Shown here piece after piece: positions 3,175-20,812 of a stretch of 64,000 nucleotides of DNA. The stretch is from a candidate division WOR-3 bacterium. GTDB taxonomy: Bacteria > Hydrothermota > UBA3073. The position numbers and the translations under genes are program-made. The notes under the pieces are model-generated. The model searched no databases. It saw only the letters and a list, made by a program, of their open reading frames with translations, and was not told the origin of the DNA. The stretch lies in contig JAUWGP010000003.1 in NCBI GenBank assembly GCA_030606335.1, positions 26,065-90,064 of the forward strand, given 5' to 3'. The first letter of the stretch is position 1; every line of letters begins with the position of its first letter.

Positions 3175-3957
3175 ATGTGCTGGGGATTGGAAAATCGATT
3201 AAGTCGCATATTTCAGAAGGATAATCATACCATTATGCTGGCAGTAGATCATGGATACTTTTTAGGACCAACATCTGGTCTTGAAGTTCCTAAAAAGACC
3301 ATTGAACCACTGATTTCCTTTGCTGATTCCTTAATGCTAACCAGGGGAATACTTCGCACTTCTATATCCTCTGATATACCTGTTCCTATTGTACTTAGGG
3401 TATCGGGTGGAAATAGTATCATTGGTAAAGAACTCTCTGATGAAGACATTACAGTTTCGATGGAAGATGCAATCCGCCTTAATGTCTCTGCGGTGGCACT
3501 CTCAATATATGTTGGAAGTGAATACCAGCACCGCACTATTATTAATCTTTCCAGATTGGTTGATGAAGGTGAAAAATATGGTATTCCAGTCCTGGCTGTA
3601 ACAGCAGTGGGAAGAGAAATGGTTCGTGATTCGAAATATCTTGCCTTATGCTGTCGCATTGCAGCAGAACATGGTGCACACTTTGTTAAGACATACCATT
3701 GTAAAGATTTCAGGAAGGTTGTAGAGAGTTGTCCTGTACCCTTAGTAATAGCAGGTGGTAAAAAGATTCCAGAGAAAGATGCACTACAAGTTGCATTCAA
3801 TGCAATACAAGATGGTGCTTCCGGTGTTGACATGGGGAGAAATATCTTCCAATCAACTCATCCTGTTGCAATGATTAAAGCTGTGCGTGCAATTGTGCAT
3901 AAGAATGCTTCTGTAGACGATGCATACAATATATTCAACGAATTAAAGTCGAAATAG
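3175..3957 (+). CDS. class I aldolase, DhnA family (fructose-bisphosphate aldolase / ADH-synthase like)
   Basis: About 260 aa TIM-barrel aldolase pattern (IMLAVDHG...VLRVSGG...HFVKTY...PLVIAGG); AGGAGG Shine-Dalgarno at 3163-3168. Confidence 0.65.
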   Translation: MCWGLENRLSRIFQKDNHTIMLAVDHGYFLGPTSGLEVPKKTIEPLISFADSLMLTRGILRTSISSDIPVPIVLRVSGGNSIIGKELSDEDITVSMEDAIRLNVSAVALSIYVGSEYQHRTIINLSRLVDEGEKYGIPVLAVTAVGREMVRDSKYLALCCRIAAEHGAHFVKTYHCKDFRKVVESCPVPLVIAGGKKIPEKDALQVAFNAIQDGASGVDMGRNIFQSTHPVAMIKAVRAIVHKNASVDDAYNIFNELKSK

Positions 3958-3975
3958 TATACGATCACTTTATGA

Positions 3976-4217
3976 AATGTGCCTGTCATTGCGAACGAAC
4001 GGTGTGCATGGCAATCTCATCCCTTGTTATCAATTATTTTTGGAGTGCATTACCTTGGTAATGCAATATGGTAATCCAATTTCTTTATCACTATTACATC
4101 TAAATGAGATTGCTTCACCCGTCAATTCGTCGTACTTCTTGACGGACGACGGGCTCGCAATGACAAAAGTGAATGCCTGTCGTTGCGAGTGAACTTAGTG
4201 AGTGCAGTAATCTCATA
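3976..4217. repeat. composite dispersed repeat, copy A ('tgtcattgcgag...ggcaatctcat' family)
   Basis: gtcattgcgaacgaac...ggcaatctcat at 3985-4020, gtgcattaccttggtaatgca at 4045, and gacggacgacgggctcgcaatgacaaaagtgaatgcctgtcgttgcgag...gtaatctcat at 4150-4217. The same modules recur at 20598, 27421-27660 and 57100-57440. Confidence 0.6.
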
Positions 4218-4239
4218 TAGATAAATATCTTCAAAATCA

Positions 4240-5021: not shown

Positions 5022-5412
5022 CAAAACTTAACCACAGAGAACACAGAGAAATTAAATCAAAATTACTAATTAGCAATGTGTAATTATAAATTTGTGAAAA
5101 ATCCTTTTTAAACTGCTAACTTTATATTTTACATTGTTTCTTTGTCTCTGTGACCTCTTATCCATCTCAAGATCTGTTCCGTGGGATCCGTATGGAATGA
5201 ATAGGTATAAGGTCACCTTCCTAATTATCTTACCTGCTAGCTGGCAGGTGGTAGACAGACAATTCCTGTGAAATCATATCCGTTAGCTAATGAACATTAT
5301 CTGGATTCACTCTGTTAAATAGTTATAAAATTGAGTAAAAGAAATCACTCCTGGTACTTTATTTAACAGGAGAACCACGGAGAATTAATTTTTCTCTGTG
5401 CTCTCTGTGGTT
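5022..5412. repeat. MITE-like element with CCACAGAGAACACAGAGAA terminal inverted repeats, copy 1
   Basis: ccacagagaacacagagaa at 5022-5040 and its inverse ttctctgtgctctctgtggtt at 5392-5412. The interior shares ctgtgaaatcatatccgttagctaatgaacattatctgga with copy 2. Confidence 0.55.
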
Positions 5413-5425
5413 TATTTCATATTTT

Positions 5426-7405
5426 TTACAGTATCCTCTTTTTTACCATAGATTGTAATTTCCTTATTCTATCCCTTACTTTAATTGCCTCCTCAAAATT
5501 TTCCTCATCTGCAAGTTTCCCCATAATTTTTGTCAGTTTGCTTATCATCTCCATACCTTCTATGCCTTCTAAAATTTCATACACCTCTCCTTTTTCTTTT
5601 ATACGTGTATCTGCTATGGATGTGGAGCGGAGAATCTCCTCCTTAGTTTTATATATAGTCTCTGGAGTTATGTTATGTTTCCTGTTATATTCTAATTGTG
5701 CCCTACGTCTTCTCTCCGTCTCTTCTATAGTTTTCATCATAGAACCTGTGATGTTATCAGCATACATTATTACTTCTCCATTCACATTCCTTGCAGCTCT
5801 CCCTGCAGTCTGTATAAGGGATGTATATGAGCGTAAGAATCCTTCGTGATCTGCATCTAGAATAGCAACGAGAGATACCTCGGGTAGATCCAGTCCCTCC
5901 CTTAGTAGATTTATACCAACAAGGCAATCAAATTCTGAAAGCCTTAGATCCCTCAGGATGTCTACCCTCTCTATAGCATTTATCTCAGAGTGTATATACC
6001 TTACTTTTATATCTAATCTTGCAAGATAATCTGTTAATTCCTCTGCCATTCTTTTTGTCAGGGTTGTAACAAGAATCCTCTCCCCCCTTTCCACTCTCCT
6101 TTTTATCTCCTCTAAAAGATCATCTATCTCATTCTTTTTTGGTTTTACAGTAATCTTCGGGTCTTGAATACCTGTTGGTCTTATGATCTGCTCGACAATA
6201 TGGGATGAATTTCTAAATTCAAAATCACCAGGTGTTGCTGAGGTAAAGATTATCTGTGGAACTTTCTCTAAAAACTCATCAAATGTAAGGGGGCGGTTAT
6301 CGAGTGCAGAAGGTAGTCTGAATCCATATTCAACCAGTGTCTCTTTCCTCGAACGGTCACCAAGATACATGCCTATAATTTGAGGGATAGTAACATGAGA
6401 TTCATCAATTATACAGAGAAAGTCGTCAGGAAAGAAATCAAGCAGACAGAACGGTCTCGAGCCTGGCTTCCTTACTGAAAGATGACGCGAATAGTTTTCT
6501 ATACCTGTGCAGTATCCGACCTCTCTAAGTAGTTCTATATCATATTTCGTGCGTCCTTCAAGTCTCTGAGCCTCAAGTAGTTTTCCCTTATCTTTAAAAT
6601 ACTTCAACCTATCCTCCAGTTCCTGCTCTATGTCTTTTATTGCCCTTCCTAATCTCGTGTGGTCTGTAACAAAGTGTCTTGCGGGATAAATATGTACCCA
6701 TTCCCTTTCTTCAATCTTCTTGCCTGTAAGTGGATCAATCATAGATATCTTTTCTACAGTATCACCAAAAAAATCAATTCTAACACCACCCTCCTCATAT
6801 GCCGGACGAACCTCAACCACATCACCCTTTACCCTGAATGTTCCTCGGAGAAAATCAAGGTCATTTCTCGCATAATGGATGTCAACAAGCCCTTTTAACA
6901 GCTTCTTTCTCGAGATTAATTCGTTCTTTTTTACCCTTACCACATGTTTTTTATAATCCTCTGGGGAACCAAGTCCGTATATACAGGATACTGATGCAAC
7001 GATAACTACATCATTTCTCTCAATGAGTGCACTTGTAGCCCGTAGACGTAATTTATCTATTTCGTCGTTTATGGAGGCGTCCTTCTCTATATAGAGATCT
7101 GTTGCAGGTAAATACGCCTCAGGTTGATAATAGTCGTAATAAGAGATAAAATACTCAACCGAGCTGCCCGGGAAAAAACCCCTATATTCGCCGAATAACT
7201 GCGCAGCAAGAGTCTTATTATGAGAGATGACGATTGTGGGTTTATCCACTCTCGCTATAACATTACCCATTGTGAATGTCTTGCCAGAACCAGTTATGCC
7301 CAGAAGTGTCTGGAACTTATAACCCTTATTAATCCCCTCTACAAGCCTATCCACTGCCTGGGGTTGGTCACCAACAAGTGAGAATTTCGATGTTATATTA
7401 AACAT
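5426..7405 (-). CDS. uvrB: excinuclease ABC subunit B
   Basis: 659 aa. Walker A GITGSGKT, helicase motifs and a C-terminal UVR domain ([13 protein letters not shown]); the whole length follows the UvrB pattern. Confidence 0.95.
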
Positions 7406-7410
7406 ATCCT

Positions 7411-7560
7411 CTTCTCTCTTCCCCCTTCGCCTTATTTATCCCGTAGAATGCGTAGCTATTCTATCGGGACGCCCTACGCCCTATACTCCTCTCTTATCGC
7501 AACGAGGACGTTGCTCCTACCATAGATCGTCCGTCAAACGACGGACTCCTACTTTTAATT
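7411..7560. repeat. dispersed hairpin repeat ('cccgtagaatgcg...ctattctatcggg' module plus 'ctcctctcttatcg-hairpin-ctcctacc' module), copy 1
   Basis: About 75 nt are near-identical to 25140-25215, and 7478-7522 parallels 24999-25048 with a different but still self-complementary stem. Confidence 0.5.
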
Positions 7561-7599
7561 TACTATTTTCGATTGTCGATTTACGACTGCTTTCCAATT

Positions 7600-7990
7600 T
7601 GTTTTCCTCAATAGTCAGTTGTCATTAGTCATTCAATATCCCCAACATTAAACATTAAACATTTCACATACAACATGTATCATTTAACCAATTAACTTTT
7701 CAACTAATTAATTCGTGTGTTTATTGAGTTTATTGAGTTTGTTGTGTTCATTGAGTTTTTTTAGTTGATTTGGTTTATTTAGTTCGTTTAGTTGATTTAG
7801 TTGTTATATATAATAACCAATAACCATTAACTAATAACATTTAACATTAAACATTTAACATTTACTACTCCACTGATAACCGATAACCTAATTAACTAAT
7901 CAACCAATTAACCAATCAACTATTCCTTCTATCGCGACTGGGAAGTCGCTCCTACCTTATGCCATCTGATACATTTAACATTCAACATTT
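7600..7990. repeat. AT-rich low-complexity degenerate tandem repeats
   Basis: Runs of taaacatt/acatttaacatt, tattgagttt and ttagttgattt units. The ttgagtt motif recurs at 24700-24760. Confidence 0.5.
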
Positions 7991-8009
7991 CACATTCAAC
8001 ATTTTCCCT

Positions 8010-10229
8010 TTATCTCTCCTTCACCTCCAGTATGTACGGAATCATATATAGATACTCAGAGGAAAGGAGCGACCTAATAGACGATAAATAATTGTCTAAA
8101 TCAAATGGTGAACCCATCATGCCTAAACTAAATCCTGTCTTCGGTTTAGGATATATATCGACATCTCTTTCCTTGATATCCGCCATTCTCTGTGCCTCAT
8201 CCAGCGCATCGAGCAAGCCTCCTATTTCATCTATAAGCCCTAACTCCTTTGCCTTAATTCCACTCCATATCCTTCCCTCTCCAATGGAGTGTATATATTC
8301 TTTTGAAGTATCCCTCTCTGATGCAACAAGATTGATAAACCTATCATAATACCATTCAACAGATTTTTTGATTCTCTCACGTTCATATTCATCCCACTTA
8401 TGTATCTCAGACATTATATCTGCATGCTTACCCAATTTTACTATATCCCATGATATTCCAATTTTATCATAGAGCTCCTTAAAAATAAAGTTTATCCAGA
8501 AAACACCTATAGAGCCTGTAAGTGTAGTATTGTCTGAAAATATTTTATCCCCATATATGGATATCACATATCCGCCTGAACCTGCAACACCACCCATTGA
8601 GATTATAACAGGTTTATCCTTACTTATATCCCTTAATGCATTTGTGATTAGTTCTGATGCTAATGCATCTCCCCCACCAGAATTCACTCTCAAGACCACT
8701 GCCTTTACATCTTCATCATCCCTTATACCCTCAAGCGTCTTTACCATATCATCTGAGCCCATATAACCCTGTGATGACTTTCCCCGTATGATATTTCCAT
8801 CCGCAATAACAAGTGCTATCTTTTTCTTGCCTTTTCTCCATTCTCTTCCCACTATCTTTTCTTTTTTAAATTTTCTTGCTCCAGAACCAATAAGCGAATC
8901 CAAATCCTGTTTTTCCAGTGCGGCATCTACCAATCTCGCCTCTATTGCTCCATCACTATTAAAAAAAATGCCTTCATCAATGAGTTTTTGCAGGCTATCT
9001 GTTGACATACCCCTTGCCTCAGCGATAATCTCAATTGTAGGATAATAAACATCTTCAAGATACTCTATGATCTGAAGGCTGTCTTCCTCAGACATATCCT
9101 TTCTTTCAAATGTCTCAGGAGTAGATTTAAATCTACCTATTCCTTCAACCTGAGCCTCTACACCGATTTTTTCCATTGTTCCCTTAAAATATATCCTTCT
9201 GATCTGTATGCCAGGTATAACAACTTTTCCAACTGGATGTACAAATATTGAATCTGCTATAGATGAAAGGTATAAAGAGCCCAGACCATAAGATAGCGAG
9301 TATATGTATATTTTCTTACCACTTGCCTTAAATCGACTCAGTTCATTCCTTATCTCCTCCCATTTGCTCATATGCATCAAAGAACCTTTTAATTCCAAAA
9401 CCAGACCTTTACAGGCATCATCCTCTGAAAGTTCCTTTATCTGAGATAATAACTTATAAAAGGGTGCCTCGATCTTCTCAAACAAAAATTGACTTCTTTT
9501 AAGCTCGGGATAAGAACCTTCTATCTTTAGCTCTGCAAAGCAAGGTTTGGGTTTCATGAAGGTTGGATATTTCTCGTTTGATAGGACTAAACCTGCATTA
9601 TAAGTTTCGTTATCATCATTTTTACCATATCTGCCACCTAAACCGATATTACCAAAAGAGATGGAAATACCTGCATTCCATACATCCTCATTACCATAAC
9701 CCTCTATGAAAATTCCATCCACAGGTTCTACCTTCAATCCCACGAAATAATCCGAAGACTCATCCTCAACATTGTAGTTATAATCAAAACTTAGTGTTAT
9801 TCTATCAGTACCTGGTCTAATGCCTATACCAGACTTGAGTAAAAAATTGTCTCCTATCTTATCACCCACAAACCCAAGTGAAAGAAACCTGTGGGGTCTT
9901 ACCGTTGTTCCAATAAGGTAACCCTTTGTATCACCAAATTTGTATCCATAACCCATATGTAGCCAATTGCATATTCGAGCTCCACTTGATAGCACATAAC
10001 TTGTTTGTTCACCCCTTATAACTGTTCCAAAACCCAGATTACCAAGCGAAAGACCGATGGTATGTGAAGTATCTATATCACTAAAACTTCCAAGATAAGA
10101 TAATTCAAGCCCTGGAGATATTGCAATCCCTGACGGATTTACAAATGACGAAAACGACCTCTGAGTTGTTGATACACTTACATCAGCAAAAAGTGTAATC
10201 ACAACAGACATCAGGATGTTTACCAACAT
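8010..10229 (-). CDS. sppA: signal peptide peptidase SppA (67K type, two ClpP-like domains) fused to an N-terminal beta-rich (outer-membrane-barrel-like) domain
   Basis: C-terminal two thirds carry tandem S49 peptidase domains (VLRVNSGGGDALASE...GGVAGSGGYVIS, and a second, degenerate S49 repeat). The N-terminal ~240 aa have alternating hydrophobic and Gly/Ser/Asn-rich strands (GYGYKFG, ISISFGNIGLGGRYG). Confidence 0.8.
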   Translation of the reverse strand: MLVNILMSVVITLFADVSVSTTQRSFSSFVNPSGIAISPGLELSYLGSFSDIDTSHTIGLSLGNLGFGTVIRGEQTSYVLSSGARICNWLHMGYGYKFGDTKGYLIGTTVRPHRFLSLGFVGDKIGDNFLLKSGIGIRPGTDRITLSFDYNYNVEDESSDYFVGLKVEPVDGIFIEGYGNEDVWNAGISISFGNIGLGGRYGKNDDNETYNAGLVLSNEKYPTFMKPKPCFAELKIEGSYPELKRSQFLFEKIEAPFYKLLSQIKELSEDDACKGLVLELKGSLMHMSKWEEIRNELSRFKASGKKIYIYSLSYGLGSLYLSSIADSIFVHPVGKVVIPGIQIRRIYFKGTMEKIGVEAQVEGIGRFKSTPETFERKDMSEEDSLQIIEYLEDVYYPTIEIIAEARGMSTDSLQKLIDEGIFFNSDGAIEARLVDAALEKQDLDSLIGSGARKFKKEKIVGREWRKGKKKIALVIADGNIIRGKSSQGYMGSDDMVKTLEGIRDDEDVKAVVLRVNSGGGDALASELITNALRDISKDKPVIISMGGVAGSGGYVISIYGDKIFSDNTTLTGSIGVFWINFIFKELYDKIGISWDIVKLGKHADIMSEIHKWDEYERERIKKSVEWYYDRFINLVASERDTSKEYIHSIGEGRIWSGIKAKELGLIDEIGGLLDALDEAQRMADIKERDVDIYPKPKTGFSLGMMGSPFDLDNYLSSIRSLLSSEYLYMIPYILEVKER

Positions 10230-10268
10230 ATACCCTCCTTTGTTTATATAGTATTGTTAAAAATCTCA

Positions 10269-10558
10269 CCACAGAGAACACAGAGAATGTTAAGTATTAA
10301 GGAATTATAAAAGATTCTTCTCCCTCCCCCCTGTGGCCTCTCTATATAACCAATCCTTTGACATTTATACATAGAAATTTATAAATTAAAACAGGGATTT
10401 AAAGAGATTGAAAGAAATTCATTTTTTTAAAAATAATACATTCTCTTAAGTTCTCTTTCCATCCCTGTAAAATCATATCTGTTAGTTAACGGACATTGTC
10501 TGGAGAGCACAGAGAATTAAATTTACTCTGTGATCCGTCTGAGACGGACTGTGGTTTC
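10269..10558. repeat. MITE-like element with CCACAGAGAACACAGAGAA terminal inverted repeats, copy 2
   Basis: ccacagagaacacagagaa at 10269-10287 and the inverted copy ctctgtgatccgtctgagacggactgtggtttc at 10526-10558. The interior is shared with copy 1. Confidence 0.55.
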
Positions 10559-10732
10559 ATATTCTATTTGACACTACCAATTGTTTATATAATAAAAATC
10601 CTAACTAACCCGTATTAATAAATACGAAATTTTTCATAAAAAGTTTCACACAATTATAACCTTAAATTTTTTAAAAGTCAAGAGAAAATGATGTCCGATA
10701 GTTTGTAATAAAGTTGTTTTATATAAAAAATC

Positions 10733-10784: not shown

Positions 10785-13133
10785 ATGGAAAAATTTAATA
10801 TGCATCTCAGCGAAGCAGATACAAGAGCAAAATTAATTGACCCCGCTCTCCATCTTTCTGGATGGACAGAAGACCTTGTAAGACGTGAAGAAACTGAGAG
10901 AGGTATTGATATTATAGATGGAAAACCACGCAGAAGAAGAAGGGGACGAATAGATTATATTCTACGCATTAAAGTTAATATTAACTCACAACCCATCGCA
11001 GTTGCTTTAATAGAAGCTAAGAAAAGCGATAACCCACCTGATAAAGGACTCGAACAAGCAAAGAAGTACGCAAGACTAAATAACGTACCTTTTGTATATT
11101 CTTCCAATGGTCATCTCTTTGTGGAATATGACAACTTTACAGGTAAAACTTCTCACCCGAATTCTTTAGAAAAGTTTCCTACACCATTTGAACTACGACA
11201 ACGCCATGAAAAAGGGATTGGTATTTCACTTGATAAAGAAAATGCAAAGCCACTTCTTATCCCGTATCCAGGAGGTGAAGCAAGCCGTCGTTATTATCAG
11301 GATGCAGCAATTCGTGCTACACTCGAGAAAATTATACAGGGAAAAAAACGGATGCTCCTATTCCTTGCTACAGGCTCCGGGAAAACCTTCATTGCGGTTC
11401 GTCTTTTGAAGAAGATTGCAGATGCTGGGCATTTACATCGTGCTTTATTTCTTTGTGACAGGGATGAACTCCGAAATCAGGGACTTTCAGCATATCAAAA
11501 TATTTTTGGTGCTGATGCTGCTCCTGTATCTACTGCAAATCCACAGAAAAACGCAAGAATTTTAATAGCAACATATCAAACTCTTAATGTAGCAGGCGAG
11601 AACGAAGATGCTAAATTCTTACTCGATAACTATCCTGAAAACTATTTCAGTCATATAATAATCGATGAATGCCATAGGAGTGCCTGGGGTAAATGGAGTA
11701 TCGTGCTAAAAAGAAATTCCGATGCAATTCAAATAGGACTTACAGCCACTCCACGTTACTGGGAGGGTGGTAGTAAGGAGGAAAAAAAAGTAGACAAAGA
11801 GATAACTGCTAACAACCTTCAATATTTTGGCGAACCAATTTACGAATACTCAATGTCACAAGGAATTGAAGATGGTTATCTCCCTGCTTGTGAGGTGATA
11901 AGACGCGATGTGAATCTCGATATAATAGGTGTCACACGAAATGATATTAAAGTATTGGGAGCAAGAGATGCTACAACAGGTAAGCAACTTACACCCGACG
12001 AAACCCGTGAGATATACGAAGCTACATCCTTTGAGGATATTATTCAATTGCCTGACAGAGTAGAAACAATGTGTAAAGACCTTTTTAAAATGTTCCTTCA
12101 AACGGGTGGACCTCACCAGAAGACAGTTATTTTTTGTGTGCGTGATACCCATGCAGATGCCATTGCCGCTGAAATAAATAATCTTTATGCTGAGTGGTGT
12201 GATAGAAATAAGCAAAAAAGATATGAGCCTTATGCATTCAAATGCACTGCTTCTGTGGGAGGAAGCAAATATATATCAGATTTGCGTAGCTTAGAGCGAA
12301 GTCATTTTATCGCTACTACAGTTGATTTAATAACTACAGGAGTTGATATACCAATATTACGTAATGTAGTATTCTTTAGATATATCCGTTCTCCAATATA
12401 CTTTCAACAAATGATGGGAAGGGGGTCAAGAATTCATCTTCCTACAAATAAATTGATGTTTCGGGTTTATGATTATACGGATGCTACAAGACTGTTAGGA
12501 GAAGAGTTTAAGTCAAAACCCTCACCCACACGAGAAAAAAAGGAAACAGAAGAGGGAGAAAAAGAAAGAATAATCCGAGTAGAAGGATTTGATGTTCGAA
12601 TTAATCCTGCCGGAACTTATATTGTCACTGAAAAAGAAGGAAGATTATCAATGGTTACAGTAGAGGAGTACAAGCAGACTATTGCAGAGCACTTGGTTGA
12701 AAATGTTAAAACATTAGACGATCTTCGTCATAGATGGATAAATCCTGAGGAACGTGGAGAGCTTATAGATTCCCTTCCCGAAGACGGACGAGGAATAAGA
12801 ATGCTGCAGGAACTTCTTAATCGAAAAGAATATGACCTTTATGATTTAATGGCAGAAATCGGGTTTGGTGTATCCCCTAAAAGTCGTGAGGAAAGAGTTG
12901 AAGCCCTTCAATATAAACATGCTGACTGGTTTAAACATTTACCCTCAGAAACAGCAAAAACATTGTTTGCACTTGCAAGGCAATTTGAAAGAGGCGGTAC
13001 TGAAGAATTAGAAAACCCGTATGTTTTCAATGCTCCTGATGTTGTTAAAGCGGGTGGACATCAAGCTTTAAAGGTGCTTGGTGGACCAAAAGACATTATT
13101 ATTGAGATGAAAAGGAGGTTATTTGCAGCCTGA
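10785..13133 (+). CDS. hsdR: Type I restriction enzyme R subunit (EcoEI-like size class)
   Basis: N-terminal HsdR signature MHLSEADTRAKLIDPALHLSGW; helicase motif I LATGSGKT and motif II IIIDECHRS; 782 aa. Confidence 0.9.
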   Translation: MEKFNMHLSEADTRAKLIDPALHLSGWTEDLVRREETERGIDIIDGKPRRRRRGRIDYILRIKVNINSQPIAVALIEAKKSDNPPDKGLEQAKKYARLNNVPFVYSSNGHLFVEYDNFTGKTSHPNSLEKFPTPFELRQRHEKGIGISLDKENAKPLLIPYPGGEASRRYYQDAAIRATLEKIIQGKKRMLLFLATGSGKTFIAVRLLKKIADAGHLHRALFLCDRDELRNQGLSAYQNIFGADAAPVSTANPQKNARILIATYQTLNVAGENEDAKFLLDNYPENYFSHIIIDECHRSAWGKWSIVLKRNSDAIQIGLTATPRYWEGGSKEEKKVDKEITANNLQYFGEPIYEYSMSQGIEDGYLPACEVIRRDVNLDIIGVTRNDIKVLGARDATTGKQLTPDETREIYEATSFEDIIQLPDRVETMCKDLFKMFLQTGGPHQKTVIFCVRDTHADAIAAEINNLYAEWCDRNKQKRYEPYAFKCTASVGGSKYISDLRSLERSHFIATTVDLITTGVDIPILRNVVFFRYIRSPIYFQQMMGRGSRIHLPTNKLMFRVYDYTDATRLLGEEFKSKPSPTREKKETEEGEKERIIRVEGFDVRINPAGTYIVTEKEGRLSMVTVEEYKQTIAEHLVENVKTLDDLRHRWINPEERGELIDSLPEDGRGIRMLQELLNRKEYDLYDLMAEIGFGVSPKSREERVEALQYKHADWFKHLPSETAKTLFALARQFERGGTEELENPYVFNAPDVVKAGGHQALKVLGGPKDIIIEMKRRLFAA

Positions 13134-14034
13134 AAAGGAGATATTTGATTTTCTTGTTGAAAATGCAATATACCCTATGATTAGTAAGAAGGGTAAGGTC
13201 TTCTTTAAATATCCGAAGAAAGGAATGTTAACTGAGGCTAAAGCAAGAGAAATTATTGAACAATTGGATATTAAGACCAGAAATGACTGCAAAAAATTAA
13301 GGGAAAAAATCAGAAACCTGAGATCTGCATTCAGAGAAAATCGTCCTATAAGCAAATGGATTAAAGAGGAAAGACCAAGGGAGATGCTGGTTAAATACGG
13401 TCCCGAGTTCCTCCCTTTATCAAAACTTCTTGCAATAATATTAAGGATAGGAAGGGAAGGAATAAGTGCAGAAGAACTATCAAAAAGGTTATTGAATAAG
13501 TTTGGTGCATTAAGGAAAATAGATACTGCAACAATTTCTGAGATACGTGAGATAGAAGGAATAGGTCTTGCAAAAGCAGCACAAATAAAAGCTGCACTTG
13601 AACTTGGTAAAAGGCTATATAAAGAAACTGCTGTAAGGAAGAGAAAGATAACAAAACCAGATGAACTTATTGAGTATGTAGCAGAATATTACGGTCCTTA
13701 TCTAAGGGACTCTGTTAAAGAGTTTTTTTATGTCATACTTCTGGATATAAAAAATAAACCTATTGATAACGTGGAAATAAGTAAGGGTAGTATAAATGCA
13801 AGTGTGGTAGATCCAAAGGATATTGTAAAAGAAGCAACTATACGGTCAGCCTCGTCAATAATTTTGGTTCATAATCATCCATCAGGTGAGACAGACCCAT
13901 CTGAAGAGGATAAAAGGTTAACAAAATCAATTATAGATGCCTGTGAACTCATTGATATAAAGGTATTAGACCATATAATCATTGGAAAAAATCAAGAAGA
14001 CTATTTTAGTTTCGTAAAGAACGGATTGATATAA
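13123..14034 (+). CDS. radC: RadC-like JAB/MPN-domain protein with an N-terminal extension
   Basis: ERPREMLVKYGPEFLPLSKLLAIILRIGREG, HhH motif IEGIGLAKAAQI, JAMM motif LVHNHPSGETDPSEEDKRLT. TTG start with AAGGAGG 5 nt upstream; overlaps the hsdR stop by 11 nt. Confidence 0.8.
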   Translation: MQPEKEIFDFLVENAIYPMISKKGKVFFKYPKKGMLTEAKAREIIEQLDIKTRNDCKKLREKIRNLRSAFRENRPISKWIKEERPREMLVKYGPEFLPLSKLLAIILRIGREGISAEELSKRLLNKFGALRKIDTATISEIREIEGIGLAKAAQIKAALELGKRLYKETAVRKRKITKPDELIEYVAEYYGPYLRDSVKEFFYVILLDIKNKPIDNVEISKGSINASVVDPKDIVKEATIRSASSIILVHNHPSGETDPSEEDKRLTKSIIDACELIDIKVLDHIIIGKNQEDYFSFVKNGLI

Positions 14035-14050
14035 TAGAGATTATTTTATT

Positions 14051-15526
14051 ATGAAAAAATATAAAATATTCGTAAGTGGCGTTCAGAGAGAGCTCAAAGA
14101 GGAGCGGTTTGCAGTAAAAGAAATCATCACTCTGAACACTTTTTTAAAGAAATACTTTGATGTCTTTCTTTTTGAGGACCTGCCAGCCAAAAGCAAGCCA
14201 GCAGAAAAGGTCTACCTTGGAAAAGTCTCGGAGAGTGATATCCTGCTATTGTTATTGGGAAAGGAGTATGGACAACCCAGTCCTGATGGTCTTTCAGCTA
14301 CAGAAAGGGAATTTAGAAAGGCTGTGGAACGGAATTTGAAAATCCTGGTTTTTTTGAGAGGAGAAGATGACTCTACCAGAGACAGGCGGGTTAGAAATCT
14401 TATACGGGAGATAAAAAGACCGGGCAGTGGATATACTTATGATGAATTTAATGGTACGTCCGATTTAAAAGAATGTGTTTTCAATAGTCTTGTAGAACTC
14501 CTGGAGGATGATGGTATTCTTGCCAGGCTCCCCTTCGATTCTACAATTTGTGAAGAAGCAACTTATGAAGACATAAATGAAGAACTGGTAGAGAACTTCC
14601 TGAAGTATAGAGCAATAAAACTAAAAGTGGAAGTTCCTGAAATACCCATAAGAGATTTCTTAGTAAAGACTATTAAAGCGGTCCGGGAATTAGACGGAAT
14701 CTTTAAGCTAACTAATGCAGCGATTCTTTTCTTTTGTGATTATCCTCAAGAATTCATTTCTCAAAGCAGTATAAAGATAGCAAGATACAGGGGGAATTCA
14801 AGGATAGAATTTATTGACTCACAGGAACTTACTGGTCCATTCTATAAAATAATTGATGATTTAGAGATATTCTTTAAAAGAAATACCCGATTAGCCAGCA
14901 AGATTGTGGAGTTTAAGAGAGTGGATATTCCCGAGTATCCCTTTGAGGCAATAAGAGAAGGAATAGTCAATGCAATGGCTCACAGAGATTATCTCCGCAT
15001 TGGTTCTAATATTCAGATGGATATCTTTAACGATAGAATAGAGGTCACCAGCCCCGGAGGACTTCTTCCAGGGTTGGACATTAAAAATCTGGAAGGGGTT
15101 CATGAGACGAGAAACAAAAGGATTTGCAAAATCTTTCACGAAACGAAAGATATGGAAAGATATGGGACTGGTATTACTAAAATGAAGAATTGGATGACAG
15201 AACACGGTTTGAAGCCGCCAGTAATAACTCAACCAGGTGATTTCTTCAGAATTAATTTTTATGGTCCGGGTGATAAGATATTAGATTTAGTTCCCAATAT
15301 ACCCGAAGAAAGACAAACAGATTTGAAAAAATTGGGCTTAAATAACAGACAAATAGAAGCATTAAGATTGATGGTAAATGAAGGGAAAGCCTTAACAAAC
15401 AGAAAATACAGAGAATTGTTTAACGTTAGCAATCAAACATTCGTTAGAGATATGCGACTACTGTCCAAGTTGGAATTTGTCACTTCCGAAGGTAAAGGTC
15501 GGTCTTTGCAATACAAAGCAAAATAA
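14051..15526 (+). CDS. DUF4062 / AlbA_2 (divergent AAA) / HATPase_c_4 protein with C-terminal HTH (Schlafen-like 'RecG-related' regulator family)
   Basis: N-terminus KIFVSGVQRELKEERFAVKEII...ILLLLLGKEYG matches the DUF4062 pattern. The middle has AIREGIVNAMAHRDYLRIGSNIQMDIFNDRIEVTSPGGLLPG (HATPase_c_4). The C-terminus has an HTH (NNRQIEALRLMVNEGKALTNRKYRELFNVSNQTFVRDMRLL). Confidence 0.6.
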   Translation: MKKYKIFVSGVQRELKEERFAVKEIITLNTFLKKYFDVFLFEDLPAKSKPAEKVYLGKVSESDILLLLLGKEYGQPSPDGLSATEREFRKAVERNLKILVFLRGEDDSTRDRRVRNLIREIKRPGSGYTYDEFNGTSDLKECVFNSLVELLEDDGILARLPFDSTICEEATYEDINEELVENFLKYRAIKLKVEVPEIPIRDFLVKTIKAVRELDGIFKLTNAAILFFCDYPQEFISQSSIKIARYRGNSRIEFIDSQELTGPFYKIIDDLEIFFKRNTRLASKIVEFKRVDIPEYPFEAIREGIVNAMAHRDYLRIGSNIQMDIFNDRIEVTSPGGLLPGLDIKNLEGVHETRNKRICKIFHETKDMERYGTGITKMKNWMTEHGLKPPVITQPGDFFRINFYGPGDKILDLVPNIPEERQTDLKKLGLNNRQIEALRLMVNEGKALTNRKYRELFNVSNQTFVRDMRLLSKLEFVTSEGKGRSLQYKAK

Positions 15527-15527
15527 C

Positions 15528-15700
15528 AATGTCACGAAACAAGTCCAAATGTCACGAGAATGTCATGAAAAAGCATGTCACGAAAAGTGAGAGAATGTCA
15601 CGGAATGCGTCACGAAAAAAGTATCCACAAAGGTGGAAAATTAATTTAAGAAATGTCCCTAAAAATTAAAAATGTCCTTAATAATGTCCGAAATCAGTAA
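15528..15700. repeat. array of about 9 degenerate AATGTCAC / AATGTCC motifs
   Basis: caATGTCACgaaa, aaATGTCACgag, aATGTCAtgaaa, gcATGTCACgaaa, gaATGTCACgga, gCGTCACgaaa, then aATGTCCct, aATGTCCtta, aATGTCCgaaa, irregularly spaced 12-21 nt apart. Confidence 0.5.
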
Positions 15701-15767
15701 TCCTAAGATAGAACTTCCAGCAGGCTGGCGATGGGTGAGACTGGGCAAGAAGATAGAAATTTATTGA
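15684..15767 (+). pseudogene. hsdS: hsdS N-terminal remnant (27 codons)
   Basis: Encodes MSEISNPKIELPAGWRWVRLGKKIEIY*, matching the N-terminus of the full hsdS (ILPPDWRWVKLGEVCEF); ctggcgatgggtga is shared at the nucleotide level. Confidence 0.5.
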
Positions 15768-15774
15768 TTTATAT

Positions 15775-16458
15775 GTGGAGGTGTCGTTAATGCTTAATCT
15801 ACAGAGAGGAATTCCAATCGAAGATGGAGATTTGTTTATCTTAGATACAAATCCATTCAGATTTTTGTATCTGGCAGCGGAAAGCCTAATCAAAGATGCA
15901 GAGCAAGCTGCAACCAAAAATAAGCATCGGGTTGAAATTAATCATTCTATTGGAGCACTTGTGGTGCTTCTTCTATCTACCGAAGCACTCATAAACAGAG
16001 TGTATGAGTGTTTCCTTAGAAGTAAATTCCCCAGACAGATATACGAAGAGATTATGGGTAAATGGTCTCTCACAATGAAATGGTATTTTGCTCCTCTGAT
16101 TTATAAATCTGGTGGTAACAATAAAACCTTTGATGTTAAAAAAGAACCCTGGCAATCTTTTTCTGAACTGAAAAAGATCAGGGATTATTTTGCTCACCCA
16201 AAGCCAGCCCAATTTCCCTTTACAGTATTAGATGCTAAAAAAAAGATCTTGGATGTTAATGAGGGCGTTATACCAAGATGGCCCCAAACAACAATTCCTA
16301 AAGACTTGAACCATTTTCGTTGGAAGGATGCTCAAACGGTTTTGGAAATTATTAATAAAATGATTGATAAATTAGACTCCTTCATGGGGGGAACAATCAA
16401 AAAGGACGATTGGTATTTAATAGAACAAATGAGTAAATATGAAAAAGCAGCTGAATAA
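15775..16458 (+). CDS. hypothetical protein embedded in the Type I RM locus
   Basis: About 222-227 aa. GGAGG at 15777-15781 precedes the ATG at 15790; the track ORF starts at GTG 15775. No recognisable motif. The 3' end overlaps the hsdS start by 20 nt. Confidence 0.5.
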   Translation: MEVSLMLNLQRGIPIEDGDLFILDTNPFRFLYLAAESLIKDAEQAATKNKHRVEINHSIGALVVLLLSTEALINRVYECFLRSKFPRQIYEEIMGKWSLTMKWYFAPLIYKSGGNNKTFDVKKEPWQSFSELKKIRDYFAHPKPAQFPFTVLDAKKKILDVNEGVIPRWPQTTIPKDLNHFRWKDAQTVLEIINKMIDKLDSFMGGTIKKDDWYLIEQMSKYEKAAE

Positions 16459-17581
16459 AGAAATACTTCCACCCGACTGGCGATGGGTGAAGTTGGGGGA
16501 AGTATGTGAGTTTGCGTATGGTTCAGGATTACCGGTACGAGATAGATTGAAGGGTCTCATTCCTGTATTTGGCTCAAACGGTGTTATTGGTTACCATAAC
16601 ATGGCAATTACTCAAAGTCCTACAATTATAATTGGTCGCAAGGGTTCAATTGGTCAAGTGAATTCTTCAGAATCTCCATGTTGGCCAATTGATACAACTT
16701 ACTACATTGACGAATCCAAAACCTCCTGTTATCTACATTGGCTGTACTGGTTACTTAAGTACCTGAGACTAGACGAACTTAATAAAGCGACTGGGGTGCC
16801 AGGTTTGAATCGTAATGACGCCTATAGTCAAGTTATCCCCCTCCCTCCTCTTTCTGAGCAGAAGCGCATCGCTGCAAAAATTAAGGAGTTAATGCAGGAG
16901 GTAGAACATGCCCGAACAGCCTGCGAAAAGCAATTAGAGGCAGCAAAAGCCCTTCCCTCCGCATATCTGCGAGAGGTCTTTAAAAGCGAAGATGCAAAGA
17001 AGTGGGAGAGTAAGAGGTTGGGAGAGGTTTGTGAGACTACAAGCGGAGGCACTCCATATAGAGGGAATAAAGAGTATTTTGACGGGGATATTCCCTGGGT
17101 GAAATCGGGAGAATTGGAAGACAATTACATCTATGACACGGAAGAGAAAATAACAGAATTAGGTCTTAAAAATTCTAGTGCTAAAATTTTGCCTATGGGA
17201 ACATTGTTAATTGCAATGTATGGAGCAACTGTTGGAAAGTTGGGGGTCTTGAATATTTCCGCTACTACTAATCAAGCTATTTGTGCCATTATTCCAAATT
17301 CCAAAGCCTCGACCAATTTTCTCTTTTTCTTTTTCATGCATTTTAGAAGAGACCTGGTCAATAAATCTTATGGAGGTGCTCAGCCAAATATCAGTCAAGA
17401 ACTAATAAAAGAAACACACATTCCTTTTCCGTCTATAAAAACCCAGCATCGTATTGCCGCTGAACTCAAAGAAAAAAAAGCAGAGGTAGATAAACTTCAC
17501 TCATCCATTGAAAGACAATTTGAAGCAATAAACGCCTTGCCACAGGCAATTTTAAGGAAGGCATTCATAGGGAAGTTGTGA
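16439..17581 (+). CDS. hsdS: Type I restriction-modification specificity subunit (two target-recognition domains)
   Basis: Two half-repeats, each starting with a conserved motif (LPPDWRWVKLGEVCEF / ESKRLGEVCETTSGGTP), each followed by a conserved coiled-coil spacer (LPPLSEQKRIAAKI..., FPSIKTQHRIAAEL...). Confidence 0.9.
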   Translation: MKKQLNKEILPPDWRWVKLGEVCEFAYGSGLPVRDRLKGLIPVFGSNGVIGYHNMAITQSPTIIIGRKGSIGQVNSSESPCWPIDTTYYIDESKTSCYLHWLYWLLKYLRLDELNKATGVPGLNRNDAYSQVIPLPPLSEQKRIAAKIKELMQEVEHARTACEKQLEAAKALPSAYLREVFKSEDAKKWESKRLGEVCETTSGGTPYRGNKEYFDGDIPWVKSGELEDNYIYDTEEKITELGLKNSSAKILPMGTLLIAMYGATVGKLGVLNISATTNQAICAIIPNSKASTNFLFFFFMHFRRDLVNKSYGGAQPNISQELIKETHIPFPSIKTQHRIAAELKEKKAEVDKLHSSIERQFEAINALPQAILRKAFIGKL

Positions 17582-17634
17582 TGGAAATTAAACCTACTAC
17601 ATTTATCTCTGTGATATCAACAAAAATATAAGAA

Positions 17635-18702
17635 ATGAATCTAAATAAACGGTCAAATAGCTTTTCCCAAGAAAATATTACTCGCATTACAGAATTCTTT
17701 AAAAATCAGCAACTTCCTGAACCTCATTTACATCTTTTTAAGAGTGTGGTTTGGAAGGGATATCGTTGGAGAGCAATTTGGAACACTCTCCATTATCGTC
17801 CACTTCATGAAACATTTCATGAATTTATCATATATATTTTGAAAGCAACTTTTGGTGAAAAATGGCGCAAAGAGCAGATGAATTTGTCTGAAGAAGAAAG
17901 ACATATTCTTATTCGCTGGGTTAAATCTTATGGTGAATGGAAAAAAGCTACTCATAATGATGAAAAGAAAGAAGGCGAGTATATCTATGGTGCTATCCCA
18001 AGTGGTGAAGTTATGGCACTCCATTCATTTGCTTATGATATATATTGCCTCCAAGTAGTCAATAAGTTACCAAACTTCTTAGTAAATAGACTGAAGAATA
18101 AAAATGAATTCCAAGGTGCAAGATATGAAATAGCTGTGGCTGCTATTATCGCTCGAGCGGGCTTTGCTATAACCTTCCTCGATGACAAGGTTAAAAGTCA
18201 AAAGCATTGTGAATTCGTCGCCAAGAATAAATATTCTGGGTTACAAATTGGAGTTGAAGCTAAAAGTCGAAGAAGGAAAGGTGTACTCCATGAAAAAGGA
18301 AATTTGAATTACTCTTCAGTTGTAAGAGGAGACATTGAGAACCTTTTTGAAAAGGCTCTTACTCAGAGGCCCAAGAACATGCCATATTTTATTTTCATCG
18401 ACTTGAATGTAATGCCTACCCCAGACCCAGAAATTCCCCCTGACAAAAAACCATGGTTTAAGGATATAAAATTGCTATTAGATAGATATGGGATACCTTC
18501 TAAAGAAAATCCAGATCCGTTTAATGCATTGGTGTTGACTAATTTTTCTTATTATTATTTGGGAAACTTACCTATTACTCATTTGGGAGAATACGGTCTA
18601 ATCATCTCTGAAATTCCAGAATACCCGTGCAAAGATATGCAGGCTATAAGTGAAATATGGGAAAGTTTAGGACGGTATTCTCATATTCCGAAAGATGTAT
18701 AA
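17635..18702 (+). CDS. hypothetical protein between hsdS and hsdM; possible PD-(D/E)xK-like nuclease core (inference)
   Basis: 355 aa with no P-loop. The segment ARYEIAVAAIIARAGFAITFLDDKVKSQKHCEFVAKNKYSGLQIGVEAKSRRRK fits a helix-E, strand-D, strand-ExK arrangement. Confidence 0.45.
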   Translation: MNLNKRSNSFSQENITRITEFFKNQQLPEPHLHLFKSVVWKGYRWRAIWNTLHYRPLHETFHEFIIYILKATFGEKWRKEQMNLSEEERHILIRWVKSYGEWKKATHNDEKKEGEYIYGAIPSGEVMALHSFAYDIYCLQVVNKLPNFLVNRLKNKNEFQGARYEIAVAAIIARAGFAITFLDDKVKSQKHCEFVAKNKYSGLQIGVEAKSRRRKGVLHEKGNLNYSSVVRGDIENLFEKALTQRPKNMPYFIFIDLNVMPTPDPEIPPDKKPWFKDIKLLLDRYGIPSKENPDPFNALVLTNFSYYYLGNLPITHLGEYGLIISEIPEYPCKDMQAISEIWESLGRYSHIPKDV

Positions 18703-18725
18703 CCTTATACCCTAAATTATCTTAT

Positions 18726-20231
18726 ATGCGAAAAAATTCTCACAAAATAACCACACCACAATCTCTGAATGCCTATATCAAGGGTATCTGTGATATTATG
18801 CGGAGGTCGGGAAGAGCTGGGGCTCTCCAGTATGTGCCTGAACTTACCTGGATGCTCTTCCTCCGTATTCTTGATGAAAAAGAGGAGATAGAAGTAGAAT
18901 ATACTAAAGCATTAGGTAGAGAATTTATTCCTTCACTCCAATATCCATATCGCTGGCGAGATTGGGCTGCTCCTGATGGAGAAAAAAGAAAGGAATTACA
19001 AGAGGGAACATTTGGAAGATTTATGAGCTTCGTCGATGGAGACCTGCTCCCTACCCTCAAAAAATTAAAGGATAAACCTGGTGCAACTCCTCGTCAGAAG
19101 GTTGTCAGTCAAGTCTTCTCCTCTTTTGAAAAAACGGGTATTGATACCGAACGCAATCTTTTAGATATACTTGATAAAATTCATGAACTCTCCTTGGAGC
19201 AAGTTGAAGAAACCCACATGTTCACACTCTCCCAGGTCTATGAGGGACTGATACAGAAAATGGGTGAGAAAAACAACGACGGTGGACAGTTTTTCACACC
19301 AAGAGAGGTTATTCGTGTTATGGTTAAAGTGATTGACCCGAAGATTGGAGAAACCGTTTATGACCCCTGCTGTGGAACGGGTGGGTTTCTGGCTCAGGCA
19401 TATCTACATATGAATAAAAATGCAACAATAGCAGATGACATTGAAACCCTCAAGATTAGAACCTTCTACGGTAGAGAGAAAGAAAATCTTGTTTACCCCA
19501 TTGTCCTTGCAAATCTCGTGCTTCATGAGATAGATGAACCACATATATGGCATGGCAACACGCTAACAGGTCATGAGGTTTATGGTGGACTTTTCCAAAG
19601 TGCACCCGTCCTCTTTGATGTAGTCCTCACTAATCCTCCCTTTGGTGGTAAAGAGGGAAAAGATGCTCGGACTCATTTTGCCTATAAAACCAGCTCTACA
19701 CAGGTATTGTTCTTGCAACATGTCATTGATAACCTTAAAAATAGTGGCAGGTGTGGAATCGTAATGGATGAAGGTGTTTTATTCCGCACAAATGAGAAAG
19801 CCTTTGTCCAGACTAAACGCAAACTCTTGAGTGAGTGCAACCTCTATTGTATTGTAAGTCTTCCTCCCAAGGTATTCCTTAATGCTGGTGCAGCAAGTAA
19901 AACCAATCTACTTTTTTTCACTAAAGGTGAACAAACTAAAGAAATATGGTATTATGACCTATCTGATTTAAATGTAACAAAAAGGCAGCCCTTAACTATG
20001 CATCACTTTGAGGAGTTCTTTAAATTATTACCAGAAAAAAAAGAAAGTGAGCATTCCTGGAAGGTTCCAATAGAAGAAATAGAAGAGAAAAATTACGACA
20101 TAAAAGCAGTAAATCCAAACAGAAAAATCGAGGAAGACACAAGAAGCCCGCAAGAGCTATTAGCAATTATTGAGTCCCAGCAAAAAGAAATCACAAACGC
20201 ATTATCAAAATTGAAAGATAAAGGCTTGTGA
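18726..20231 (+). CDS. hsdM: Type I restriction-modification N6-adenine DNA methyltransferase subunit
   Basis: HsdM N-domain (GALQYVPELTWMLFLRILDEKEE), GTGGFL SAM-binding motif, NPPFGG catalytic motif. The start is taken at the ATG at 18726, after the stop of the upstream gene. Confidence 0.9.
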   Translation: MRKNSHKITTPQSLNAYIKGICDIMRRSGRAGALQYVPELTWMLFLRILDEKEEIEVEYTKALGREFIPSLQYPYRWRDWAAPDGEKRKELQEGTFGRFMSFVDGDLLPTLKKLKDKPGATPRQKVVSQVFSSFEKTGIDTERNLLDILDKIHELSLEQVEETHMFTLSQVYEGLIQKMGEKNNDGGQFFTPREVIRVMVKVIDPKIGETVYDPCCGTGGFLAQAYLHMNKNATIADDIETLKIRTFYGREKENLVYPIVLANLVLHEIDEPHIWHGNTLTGHEVYGGLFQSAPVLFDVVLTNPPFGGKEGKDARTHFAYKTSSTQVLFLQHVIDNLKNSGRCGIVMDEGVLFRTNEKAFVQTKRKLLSECNLYCIVSLPPKVFLNAGAASKTNLLFFTKGEQTKEIWYYDLSDLNVTKRQPLTMHHFEEFFKLLPEKKESEHSWKVPIEEIEEKNYDIKAVNPNRKIEEDTRSPQELLAIIESQQKEITNALSKLKDKGL

Positions 20232-20239
20232 GATATAAT

Positions 20240-20451
20240 ATGATAAAATCTAACCCTTTCACTCCAAAGTCTGGTTTGGAGCAGAAAATCTTTTTCAATA
20301 GGGAAGATGAGATAAAATTGCCGATATTGAGATAAAAAGTTTGAATGTTTATCTTCGTAGGTTGGTAGAGAAAGAAATCTTAATTGGTGTTAGGCGTGGC
20401 GAATATAAATTAAAAGACATTCTATTGTGTGAATACCTGAGAAGAAAATAA
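20240..20451 (+). pseudogene. degraded remnant of an AAA-type (PF01637-like) ATPase gene
   Basis: Frame A encodes MIKSNPFTPKSGLEQKIFFNREDEIKLPILR*, the characteristic NPF.P...FxxREDEI N-terminus of 'archaeal-type' ATPases. A second frame at 20353-20451 encodes LRRLVEKEILIGVRRGEYKLKDILLCEYLRRK*, a wHTH-like C-terminus. The body of the gene is missing. Confidence 0.3.
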
Positions 20452-20812
20452 CAAAAATTACAAATCAAGCCTAATGTTGTAATTTCTGTAATTTTGGATA
20501 TAGAATTCTTAGGGATCGTAGGGTCAAGTCTCAACATAAGACATTTTTATTGGCGAGGGAAGTTCGGTGGCGGGGTACTCCAACGAGAGCTGTAATTTGA
20601 GTGCATTACCTTGGTAATGCAAGTGGGCGGTAGCAAGCTATTGCAATTCTTAATCTCTAAGATAGATTTTATTTAATAAAAAGGAAATATTAATAGGGAT
20701 TACAATTAGAAAGATAAACTTCTTTTGGTAAGACTAATGGGGGTCAGTTCTTGGCACACTCCAAAGAAGTTTTAATAGCACTGTAGAAATTAATCAGTAT
20801 TAGGATATAGAT

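Follow-up and report, generated by a model that had tools for sequence, protein, structure and literature searches.

Probable GTAG-1 type REPs with at least eight different stems in closely related genomes of uncultivated WOR-3 bacteria

Introduction

In pseudomonads and xanthomonads, REPs with the head and tail described below flank genes for REP-associated tyrosine transposases (RAYTs) (Nunvar et al. 2010, PMC2817692). Published examples are TGTAGGAGCGGATTCATCCGCGAT in P. entomophila, TGTGGGAGCGGGCgTGCCCGCGAA in P. putida, GTGGGAGGGGGCTTGCCCCCGAT in P. fluorescens and GTAGGAGCGCGCTCGCGCGCGA in X. campestris (PMC2817692, Table 1), and among REP variants the palindromic character is always kept (Nunvar et al., PMC2817692). 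Di Nocera et al. (2013, PMC3733652) place these REPs in the GTAG-1 class, in which an unpaired dinucleotide separates GTAG from the stem and a 3-bp motif is conserved on the far side. REP stems are mostly 6-9 bp long with loops of 2-4 nt, the head can degenerate to GTRG or GTGG, and some subfamilies have other residues in the stem that are again complementary (PMC3733652). The repeats are found mostly between unidirectional or convergent genes, near the 3' end of the upstream gene (Di Nocera et al., PMC3733652), and inverted doublets of them (REPINs) are thought to be their mobile form (Bertels and Rainey 2011, PMC3116915).

We analysed a 64-kb segment of the chromosome of a WOR-3 bacterium (37% GC), referred to here as the window. 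An earlier, sequence-only reading of this DNA had picked out two hairpins with identical flanks and different self-complementary stems, next to a repeated module, and took the preserved pairing as a sign that a hairpin is under selection, e.g. a terminator, a small RNA or a recombination site. We find that the repeat is genuine and of an already familiar kind, in an uncultivated host: the hairpins are probably REPs of the GT(A/G)G-headed superfamily with the GTAG-1 layout, which would be mobilised by a RAYT.

Results

Perfect hairpins with common flanks and different stems

The window contains four perfect hairpins, hp1 to hp4, that have common flanks and stems that are all different. Both hairpins noticed earlier are real and lie where they had been placed, but the count of two was too low, as hp2 and hp3 had been missed. 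All four are read on the minus strand. hp1 (7496-7521) has the layout GGTAGGA-GCAACG-tcct-CGTTGC-GAT with a 6-bp stem-loop at 7499-7514; with its wider conserved CT-rich flank (7486-7498) it forms ctcctctcttatcgCAACGaggaCGTTGctcctacc (7486-7521), and its minus-strand reading is GGTAGGAG-CAACGtcctCGTTG-CGAT. hp2 (7526-7552, atcGTCCGTCaaacGACGGACtcctac) has the layout GTAGGA-GTCCGTC-gttt-GACGGAC-GAT with a 7-bp stem-loop at 7529-7546 (on the plus strand atc-GTCCGTCaaacGACGGAC-tcctac), and makes a head-to-tail tandem pair with hp1. hp3 (7931-7956, atcGCGACTgggaAGTCGCtcctacc), which lies 53 nt downstream of the sppA stop codon, has the layout GGTAGGA-GCGACT-tccc-AGTCGC-GAT with a 6-bp stem-loop at 7934-7949 (on the plus strand atc-GCGACTgggaAGTCGC-tcctacc). 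hp4 (25018-25046) has the layout GGTAGGA-GCCCCGCC-ttt-GGCGGGGC-GAT with an 8-bp stem-loop at 25021-25039, and forms ctcctctcttatcgCCCCGCCaaaGGCGGGGctcctacc (25008-25046) when the wider conserved flank at 25008-25020 is included. With the closing G-C pairs counted, the stems of hp1, hp2, hp3 and hp4 are 6, 7, 6 and 8 bp long.

Comparison of hp1 with hp4 showed that the 14-nt 5' flank is identical at 14 of 14 positions and the 3' flank ctcctacc is identical too, giving 22 identical flanking bases around hairpins whose stems have almost no position in common and are of unequal length, and whose loops differ as well. The strict units all fold as isolated hairpins, as DNA or RNA; the fold of hp1 as single-stranded DNA has an energy of -6.5 kcal/mol (z -4.05), and that of hp4 is -11 kcal/mol. 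A looser unit at 21903-21927 (minus strand) reads GTGGGA-GAGGTC-tccc-GACCTC-AAT (stem-loop 21906-21921), i.e. it has a GTGGGA head and the tail AAT instead of GAT. A weak candidate for a decayed unit, at 57177-57212 (minus strand), has the loop agga, the flank tactacc and a 5-bp stem in which one pair is G.T. All of the units are intergenic, at a density of 4-5 per 64 kb.

Pairing is conserved across a family defined by its flanks

We searched ~190 kb of WOR-3 DNA (the window and related loci, the latter given L numbers) with the flanks only, i.e. ATY-G...C-TCCYAY around any G...C-closed insert of 12-22 nt. This gave 19 matches: nine with perfect stems of 6-8 bp, one with a six-bp stem containing a single G.T pair, and nine that were stemless. 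The ten units have stems of 6-8 bp and loops of 3-4 nt, with one G.T in ~60 stem pairs, and the common minus-strand layout is GT(A/G)GGA-G[stem-loop-stem]C-GA(T/A). The head is GTAG in seven of the ten; GTGG is found in the looser window unit and at L017 9757, and also in an off-pattern unit at L032 3379, and ATAG in an inverted partner unit and also in L013's copy of a unit referred to as GGGGTT. All strict units follow GTAG-GA-[G...C]-GAT or GAA. At least eight different stems stand between the common head and tail in less than 200 kb, and the differences between them are not random, as pairing is essentially never broken.

Seven units of equal geometry with five different stems were aligned without gaps (alignment A4), which we used instead of a MAFFT alignment of the six strict units (A1) whose gaps were misplaced in the stems. 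A4 has invariant AT..G on the 5' side of the stem-loop, GGA within the loop and C-TCC-A on the 3' side, and the conserved loop reads (A/G)GGA, which is UCCY on the opposite strand. All 42 of 42 stem cells are Watson-Crick, both sides change in five of the six pairs, and none of 500 shuffles equalled the observed pairing or covariation; registers slid along the alignment were 43-60% paired. The ability to form a hairpin is therefore conserved, and to this extent the sequence-only reading is supported; compensatory drift of a single structured RNA is not supported (see below).

A covariance model built from A4 (R1) scored hp1 at E 4e-12, hp3 at E 2e-11 and the looser unit at E 2.4e-10, but the last of these is among the training sequences of the model. 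R1 additionally recovered hp4 (E 1.4e-4), its twin in the related genome JAGMCL01, an inverted partner unit at L032 13129-13164 and the decayed candidate at 57177-57212 (16.5 bits, E 0.049). It missed hp2, having been built on 6-bp stems and 4-nt loops.

The flanks are CT-rich, so that resemblance by chance in low-complexity pyrimidine-rich intergenic DNA had to be weighed, and the 14-mer allowing up to three mismatches is indeed not enriched in the window (10 matches, 5.3 expected). However, exact flanks around perfect stems occur six times in two genomes, while chance flank matches are all stemless: none of 12 such matches from public collections has a hairpin. A metagenome scan for the flanks gave eight loci, all of them chance matches and none with a hairpin, and a viral-contig scan with a looser pattern gave three chance matches, again with no hairpin. 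In a scan of one genome per species the exact flank pair was found only in the WOR-3 MAG JAGMCL01, twice, a third match being a stemless chance occurrence. Flank similarity among ~1,550 perfect hairpins in the WOR-3 sequences searched peaks at 4/16, and at most one hairpin outside the family scores 10 or more; with scores of 10-16, the family members fall outside this distribution. A chance origin of the units is excluded.

The units lie in spacers built almost entirely of repeats

Locus A (7406-8009) is the spacer between a minus-strand S49 peptidase gene (sppA-like, 8010-10229) and minus-strand uvrB (5426-7405), and locus B (24703-25262) is that between a plus-strand transglutaminase-like gene and a minus-strand PEPCK gene. 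Apart from short tandem repeats, a 190-nt inverted-repeat element, module 1 and REP units, the two spacers contain almost nothing; the 604 nt of the sppA-uvrB spacer hold only module 1, three REP units and tandem repeats of 7, 8, 9 and 16 nt. Copy A of module 1 (7407-7482, 76 nt) abuts the uvrB start codon at 7405, adjoins hp1 and contains a bulged 10-bp hairpin at 7439-7469. Copy B (25131-25206, hairpin 25163-25193) lies 3' of hp4 on the plus strand, the order of module 1 and REP unit in locus B being the reverse of that in locus A. The two copies are 93% identical (71/76); this is the repeated module of the sequence-only reading, whose figure of about 95% was slightly high even over its own range (62/66, 94%).

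The 33-nt core of module 1 has two matches in the window and none in 100 shuffles, and in a JAGMCL01 variant the fold is kept by a double change from A-T to G-C. Module 1 is on the same strand as the REP units at three of three loci and is bordered by GGCGTAG heptamers. Seven tandem copies of the heptamer ACGCCCT, which reads GGCGTAG on the minus strand and so has GTAG in each copy, are found at 25193-25241, and a short array of 2.1 copies at 7469-7483. Module 1 can be read as a putative companion module of a BIME-like mosaic. The best match in JAGMCL01 to the window's composite of module 1 and hp1 is at a different locus, L002.

The start of uvrB is itself variable. Its first ~35 nt are unusually divergent, and in L013 the purine-rich tract upstream of the ATG is 28 nt longer by tandem copies of the gaagag type (L013 1-140 compared with window 7406-7440). 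The longer tract creates an in-frame upstream ATG, and gene callers predict a 671-aa UvrB (P0001) that starts inside the repeat.

The ~190-nt element is present as two direct copies (21957-22148 and 24791-24984, 85-97% identical) with 28-nt terminal inverted repeats (TGGGGGTCAGGCTAARAGATAAGARATA), which bracket the transglutaminase-like gene (22162-24702); its inverted repeat has TCTCTTATC in common with the CT-rich flank of the REP units. A probable defence island extends over 10785-21859, with type I restriction-modification genes (hsdR 10785-13133, hsdS 16439-17581, hsdM 18657-20231) interleaved with a RadC-like gene, a DUF4062/HATPase_c_4 gene, two genes with no Pfam match and a Fic/DOC gene (20813-21859). 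The window has no tRNA genes.

Several other repeats were noticed. Hairpin repeats of the form GCTCGCAATGAC...GTCATTGCGAG occur at 3993-4216, 27445-27634 and 57300-57441 and at L002 4510-4580, accompanied by ...GCAATCTCAT and CCGTCAA..TTGACGG modules; their stems are conserved and their loops variable, the opposite of the REP units. The motif AACCACAGAGARCACAGAGA is found near gene ends at 5393-5417, 10260-10286, 32898-32924, 10519-10560 and 37228-37262; at 10519-10560 the hairpin TCCGTCtgaGACGGA, with hp2's stem, lies between the two halves of the motif, and at 37228-37262 AACCACA and TGTGGTT enclose a CCTGC hairpin. A second GTAG-headed palindrome exists in two stem versions, GTAG-GGACAGGG..CCCTGTCC and GGACAACC..GGTTGTCC-CTAC, at L032 12094-12150 and at L017 17328-17380, 1150-1200 and 4946-4966; it forms doublets in JAGMCL01 and a more distant relative, with a conserved outer stem and an inner stem that varies with pairing kept. 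The window and L032 have 51 nt in common with 100% identity but in different spacers, which in the window is the one upstream of sppA (10279-10329) and in L032 the one between uvrB and NIF3 (12203-12253). Tandem paralogues with no Pfam match (45180-46619 and 46901-48331; 300 nt at 85% identity) adjoin glycosyltransferase genes, and a radical-SAM/SPASM gene is immediately preceded by two tandem 49-nt copies (54069-54166, 82% identical), which have a related 36-52-nt match at L013 8428-8479.

Units are gained, lost and replaced between closely related genomes

JAGMCL01, whose uvrB region is L032, has orthologous genes 92.8-97.8% identical to those of the window and belongs to the same species as the window's bacterium or to a sister species; identity to the window is 100% for contigs from SRR14876847 and 98.8-99.8% for those from SRR27456857 (L013). 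JAGMCL01 carries a 6.6-kb trehalose operon (an otsA/B fusion, a sugar-binding protein, two permeases and TreT) between sppA and uvrB, and its last gene abuts uvrB. The arrangement is the same in four more distant relatives (L014, L016, L021 and L022). The window has no trehalose operon, and the 604-nt repeat spacer stands in its place (7406-8009 compared with L032 3373-10014).

Stems found in the window recur unchanged in JAGMCL01 at loci unrelated to A and B, that of hp1 in L002 and that of hp4 in L004, where the whole hp4 39-mer is identical (3483-3521). After the sppA stop codon the window and JAGMCL01 have in common the stretch TAA-rgggaaaatgttraatg; JAGMCL01 then continues with GTGGGAG-CCCCGCCtttGGCGGGG-CGAAGAGGGAAGAGAG, and the window with extra heptamers and then GTAGGAG-CGACTtcccAGTCG-CGATAGAAGGAATAG. 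As point mutation cannot interconvert these stems at ~5% divergence, the comparison indicates that the unit, or its stem, has been replaced. More generally the stem differences look like swaps of units and not like stepwise compensation, i.e. they would mark distinct subtypes of the repeat, each copied or replaced as a whole unit, because the stems differ almost everywhere and in length while the flanks are identical, because the same stems recur at other loci and in another genome, and because genomes that are 93-98% identical have unrelated stems at the same gene-relative site.

Units also differ between strains in the NIF3-deoC spacer (window 3958-4239, L013 3306-3480, L032 13128-13277), whose flanking genes are 99.8% identical between strains. 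L013 and JAGMCL01 both have a segment of ~85 nt that bears a head-to-head doublet of units (L032 13129-13192); the window does not have it and carries ~200 nt of other repeats at this place. Turnover at strain level is thus rapid. Five short-read contigs end inside or at the edge of repeats, four from the window's species (L001, L013, L024 and L025) and one from a JAGMCL01 relative (L026), which is consistent with many copies per genome. L026, a LeuC relative, ends exactly at GTAGGAG, and other LeuC relatives were uninformative. Several copies of the family are thus present both in this WOR-3 bacterium and in close relatives, and genome-wide it would be of high copy number. Two candidate lines of evidence were rejected: contigs with exact PEPCK or sppA protein matches end inside repeats and were not used for presence or absence, and the sole indel among L017, L018 and L019 is a scaffold gap of Ns.

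Could the bare palindrome, and not the whole unit, be what is replaced? The 14-17-nt palindromes would then be mobile cassettes inserted at a fixed target, GTAGGAG^CGAT (unoccupied site GTAGGAGCGAT), in the manner of the SDRs of Nostoc. These are reportedly tiny hairpin elements nested in heptamer arrays and mini-transposons, and the hairpin alone is proposed to move. SDRs resemble the WOR-3 units in being very small hairpins of dissimilar sequence and common structure with tandem heptamers and mini-transposons nearby; the WOR-3 units, too, lie among heptamer arrays and adjoin a miniature inverted-repeat element. In keeping with cassettes, some stems are found in other surroundings: at 10534 a CTCTGTG..CTGTGGTT repeat encloses TCCGTC/GACGGA, which is present at L004 7830 too, and CCCGCC/GGCGGG occurs seven times with various flanks, although GC-rich palindromes of this kind are common for other reasons. 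In addition, a relative denoted by its 76% UvrB has GGTAGGAGCGATC, i.e. the head joined to the tail with no stem, after AATGTNN heptamers in the same setting, and the exact 11-mer is expected only ~0.1 times in the DNA searched. However, this is a single 'empty site' that is not orthologous to any filled site. At the sppA site the flanks differ as well as the stem (GTGGGAG/CGAAGAGGG compared with GTAGGAG/CGATAGAAGG), which replacement of the whole unit fits at least as well, and in Pseudomonas head, dinucleotide, stem and tail make up one known REP unit. SDRs, moreover, are not known to have a GTAGGA head or GAT tail, while in WOR-3 head and tail are part of the unit. We consider bare cassettes quite improbable, and take whole REP units as the elements that are copied and replaced.

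The hairpins as possible RNA elements

The unit might instead be primarily an RNA element, i.e. a stem-loop in the 3' UTR at which transcription ends or which shields the upstream mRNA from 3' exonucleases, with flanks that form a protein-binding or processing site and different stems that reflect selection on RNA structure alone. At four loci the first unit lies ~20-53 nt past a stop codon in constant orientation relative to the upstream gene, the units are isolated hairpins in otherwise unstructured, strand-biased sequence, and their loops are conserved. REPs have also been reported to act in mRNA stabilisation and termination (PMC3733652). However, the stems have no adjoining U-tract on either strand, a 7-nt tcctacc spacer preceding any T-run, and this counts against the terminator proposed by the sequence-only reading; Rho-independent terminators, which are likewise short GC-rich hairpins just downstream of genes, have a U-tract 0-2 nt after the hairpin and no conserved flanks as a feature. 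The organism uses the standard type elsewhere, with a textbook bidirectional intrinsic terminator (AAAGGGGGTGAGttgtCTCACCCCCTTT) between convergent genes at 31454-31481. An intrinsic terminator scan of both strands did not call hp1, hp3 or hp4 and rated hp2 as marginal (TCCTACTTTT), and a promoter scan gave no support.

A small RNA, which had also been suggested, is not supported either. Rfam 15 had no match at gathering score over the window and none at E<=1 over locus A, and at E<=1 over locus B only a spurious miRNA-precursor match on the neighbouring inverted-repeat element. The units occur in both orientations relative to genes, those at 21906 and 57177 being opposite to the others with respect to co-directional genes, and a G.T pair is almost never found in their stems. 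Whole units are also swapped or lost between near-identical strains, which is unexpected for a needed cis element. An RNA element as the primary identity is therefore unlikely, though a secondary role on mRNA 3' ends, as reported for REPs, is possible.

Some narrower RNA-level and coding candidates were rejected. The (A/G)GGA loop is complementary to the 3' flank TCCY in five of seven stems, but a pseudoknot (or SD/anti-SD) would need a 4-nt loop that is fully paired in spite of having no linker, which is implausible on steric grounds, and in units 3 and 9 the complementarity is broken. GGA loops as a CsrA sponge do not fit a spacer whose plus strand is G-poor (11% G) with about three GGA motifs. 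No small ORF with a properly spaced start codon follows the SD-like flanks, and locus A has no conserved counterpart of a 23-codon ORF seen in locus B.

Comparison with described REPs

The units GTAGGAG-CAACGtcctCGTTG-CGAT (hp1) and GTGGGAG-CCCCGCCtttGGCGGGG-CGAA (JAGMCL01) match published RAYT-associated REPs in head and tail, and the head/tail string is the same as in the REPs of P. entomophila, P. putida and Xanthomonas, although the match with Pseudomonas covers only ~10 specified bases and may reflect convergence. Like the GTAG-1 REPs of Pseudomonas and Xanthomonas, the WOR-3 units have a GT(A/G)GGA head, a short stem that opens with G and closes with C, a short loop and a GA(T/A) tail, and differ in stem between subfamilies with head and tail in common. 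They are extragenic near gene 3' ends (eight of nine loci lie between unidirectional or convergent genes), and are present as singletons, dimers and tandem clusters. Common flanks around different self-complementary stems are thus a documented property of the REP class (PMC3733652; Nunvar et al.). The recombination site was the nearest of the three functions offered by the sequence-only reading, since units with such a head and tail are substrates of RAYTs (PMC2817692).

There are also differences. The WOR-3 host is AT-rich (37% GC) and belongs to a candidate phylum, the loops are mostly TCCY and not TT or CMA, and at least eight stems in less than 200 kb compare with one to four dominant stems per genome. 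The WOR-3 units lie among heptamer arrays with a second palindromic module, and a RAYT gene was not seen in ~190 kb. The REP/BIME elements of E. coli likewise combine palindromic units and short conserved motifs as variable intergenic mosaics and have a GTAG head, but their stems are longer, bulged and directly after GTAG, and their orientation is usually alternating, whereas the three units of the sppA-uvrB spacer all have the same orientation. The inverted doublet at L032 13129-13192, polymorphic between near-identical strains, resembles REPINs (Bertels and Rainey 2011, PMC3116915); in WOR-3, however, doublets are a minority among singletons and direct tandems, and neither excision intermediates nor an adjacent RAYT were observed.

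No RAYT, IS200-type or other transposase gene was found among the window's genes (by Pfam) or in the gene tables of the related loci, and a tblastn of these loci with an approximate RAYT-like query, a weak test, gave no match; ~190 kb were examined in all. RAYTs are typically single-copy, so that one may lie outside these ~190 kb; in a RAYT-REP system it would be flanked by two REPs of one type in inverted orientation.

Discussion

On the likely identification as GTAG-1 REPs, each unit would consist of the head GT(A/G)G, the unpaired dinucleotide GA, a short stem-loop closed by G...C and a 3-nt tail GA(T/A), and the different stems would be REP subtypes with a single head and tail in common. 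Both module 1 and the heptamers that contain GTAG would be companion modules that form BIME-like mosaics with the units. As no RAYT was seen in the ~190 kb, the mechanism of mobilisation is taken from the known family: the units would form hairpins in single-stranded DNA, a RAYT whose gene lies elsewhere in the genome would cut and copy them, and any effect on mRNA 3' ends would be secondary. A bolder proposal, suggested by the constant head, loop and tail around unusually free stems and regarded by us as unlikely, is that the enzyme reads the shape and flanks and ignores the stem sequence, with stems diversifying or being exchanged as cassettes at GTAGGAG^CGAT. If this were true, such a stem-blind system would have had sufficient activity to build a 600-nt spacer anew where a 6.6-kb operon was lost, all since the two ~95%-identical genomes diverged.

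Two features are unusual here, the number of different stems that have a single head and tail in common and the fact that an operon loss associated with the repeats is recent. The units mark sites of strain-level rearrangement, including loss of the trehalose operon. Together with their companion repeats they break short-read assemblies of this lineage, and such repeats can be mis-called as coding sequence, e.g. the 671-aa UvrB model. Common flanks with different complementary stems can be the signature of REP subfamilies and do not necessarily reflect RNA covariation.

The identification would add an uncultivated candidate phylum, in which head and tail are nearly the same, to the hosts of the GTAGGAG...CGAT class of REPs, so far known mainly from gamma-proteobacteria. 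It predicts a RAYT-type transposase in these WOR-3 genomes; if the lineage proves to have none, some other enzyme would maintain REPs of the GTAG-1 type. The WOR-3 REPs therefore bear on the question of whether REP-RAYT systems are ancient or have spread horizontally.
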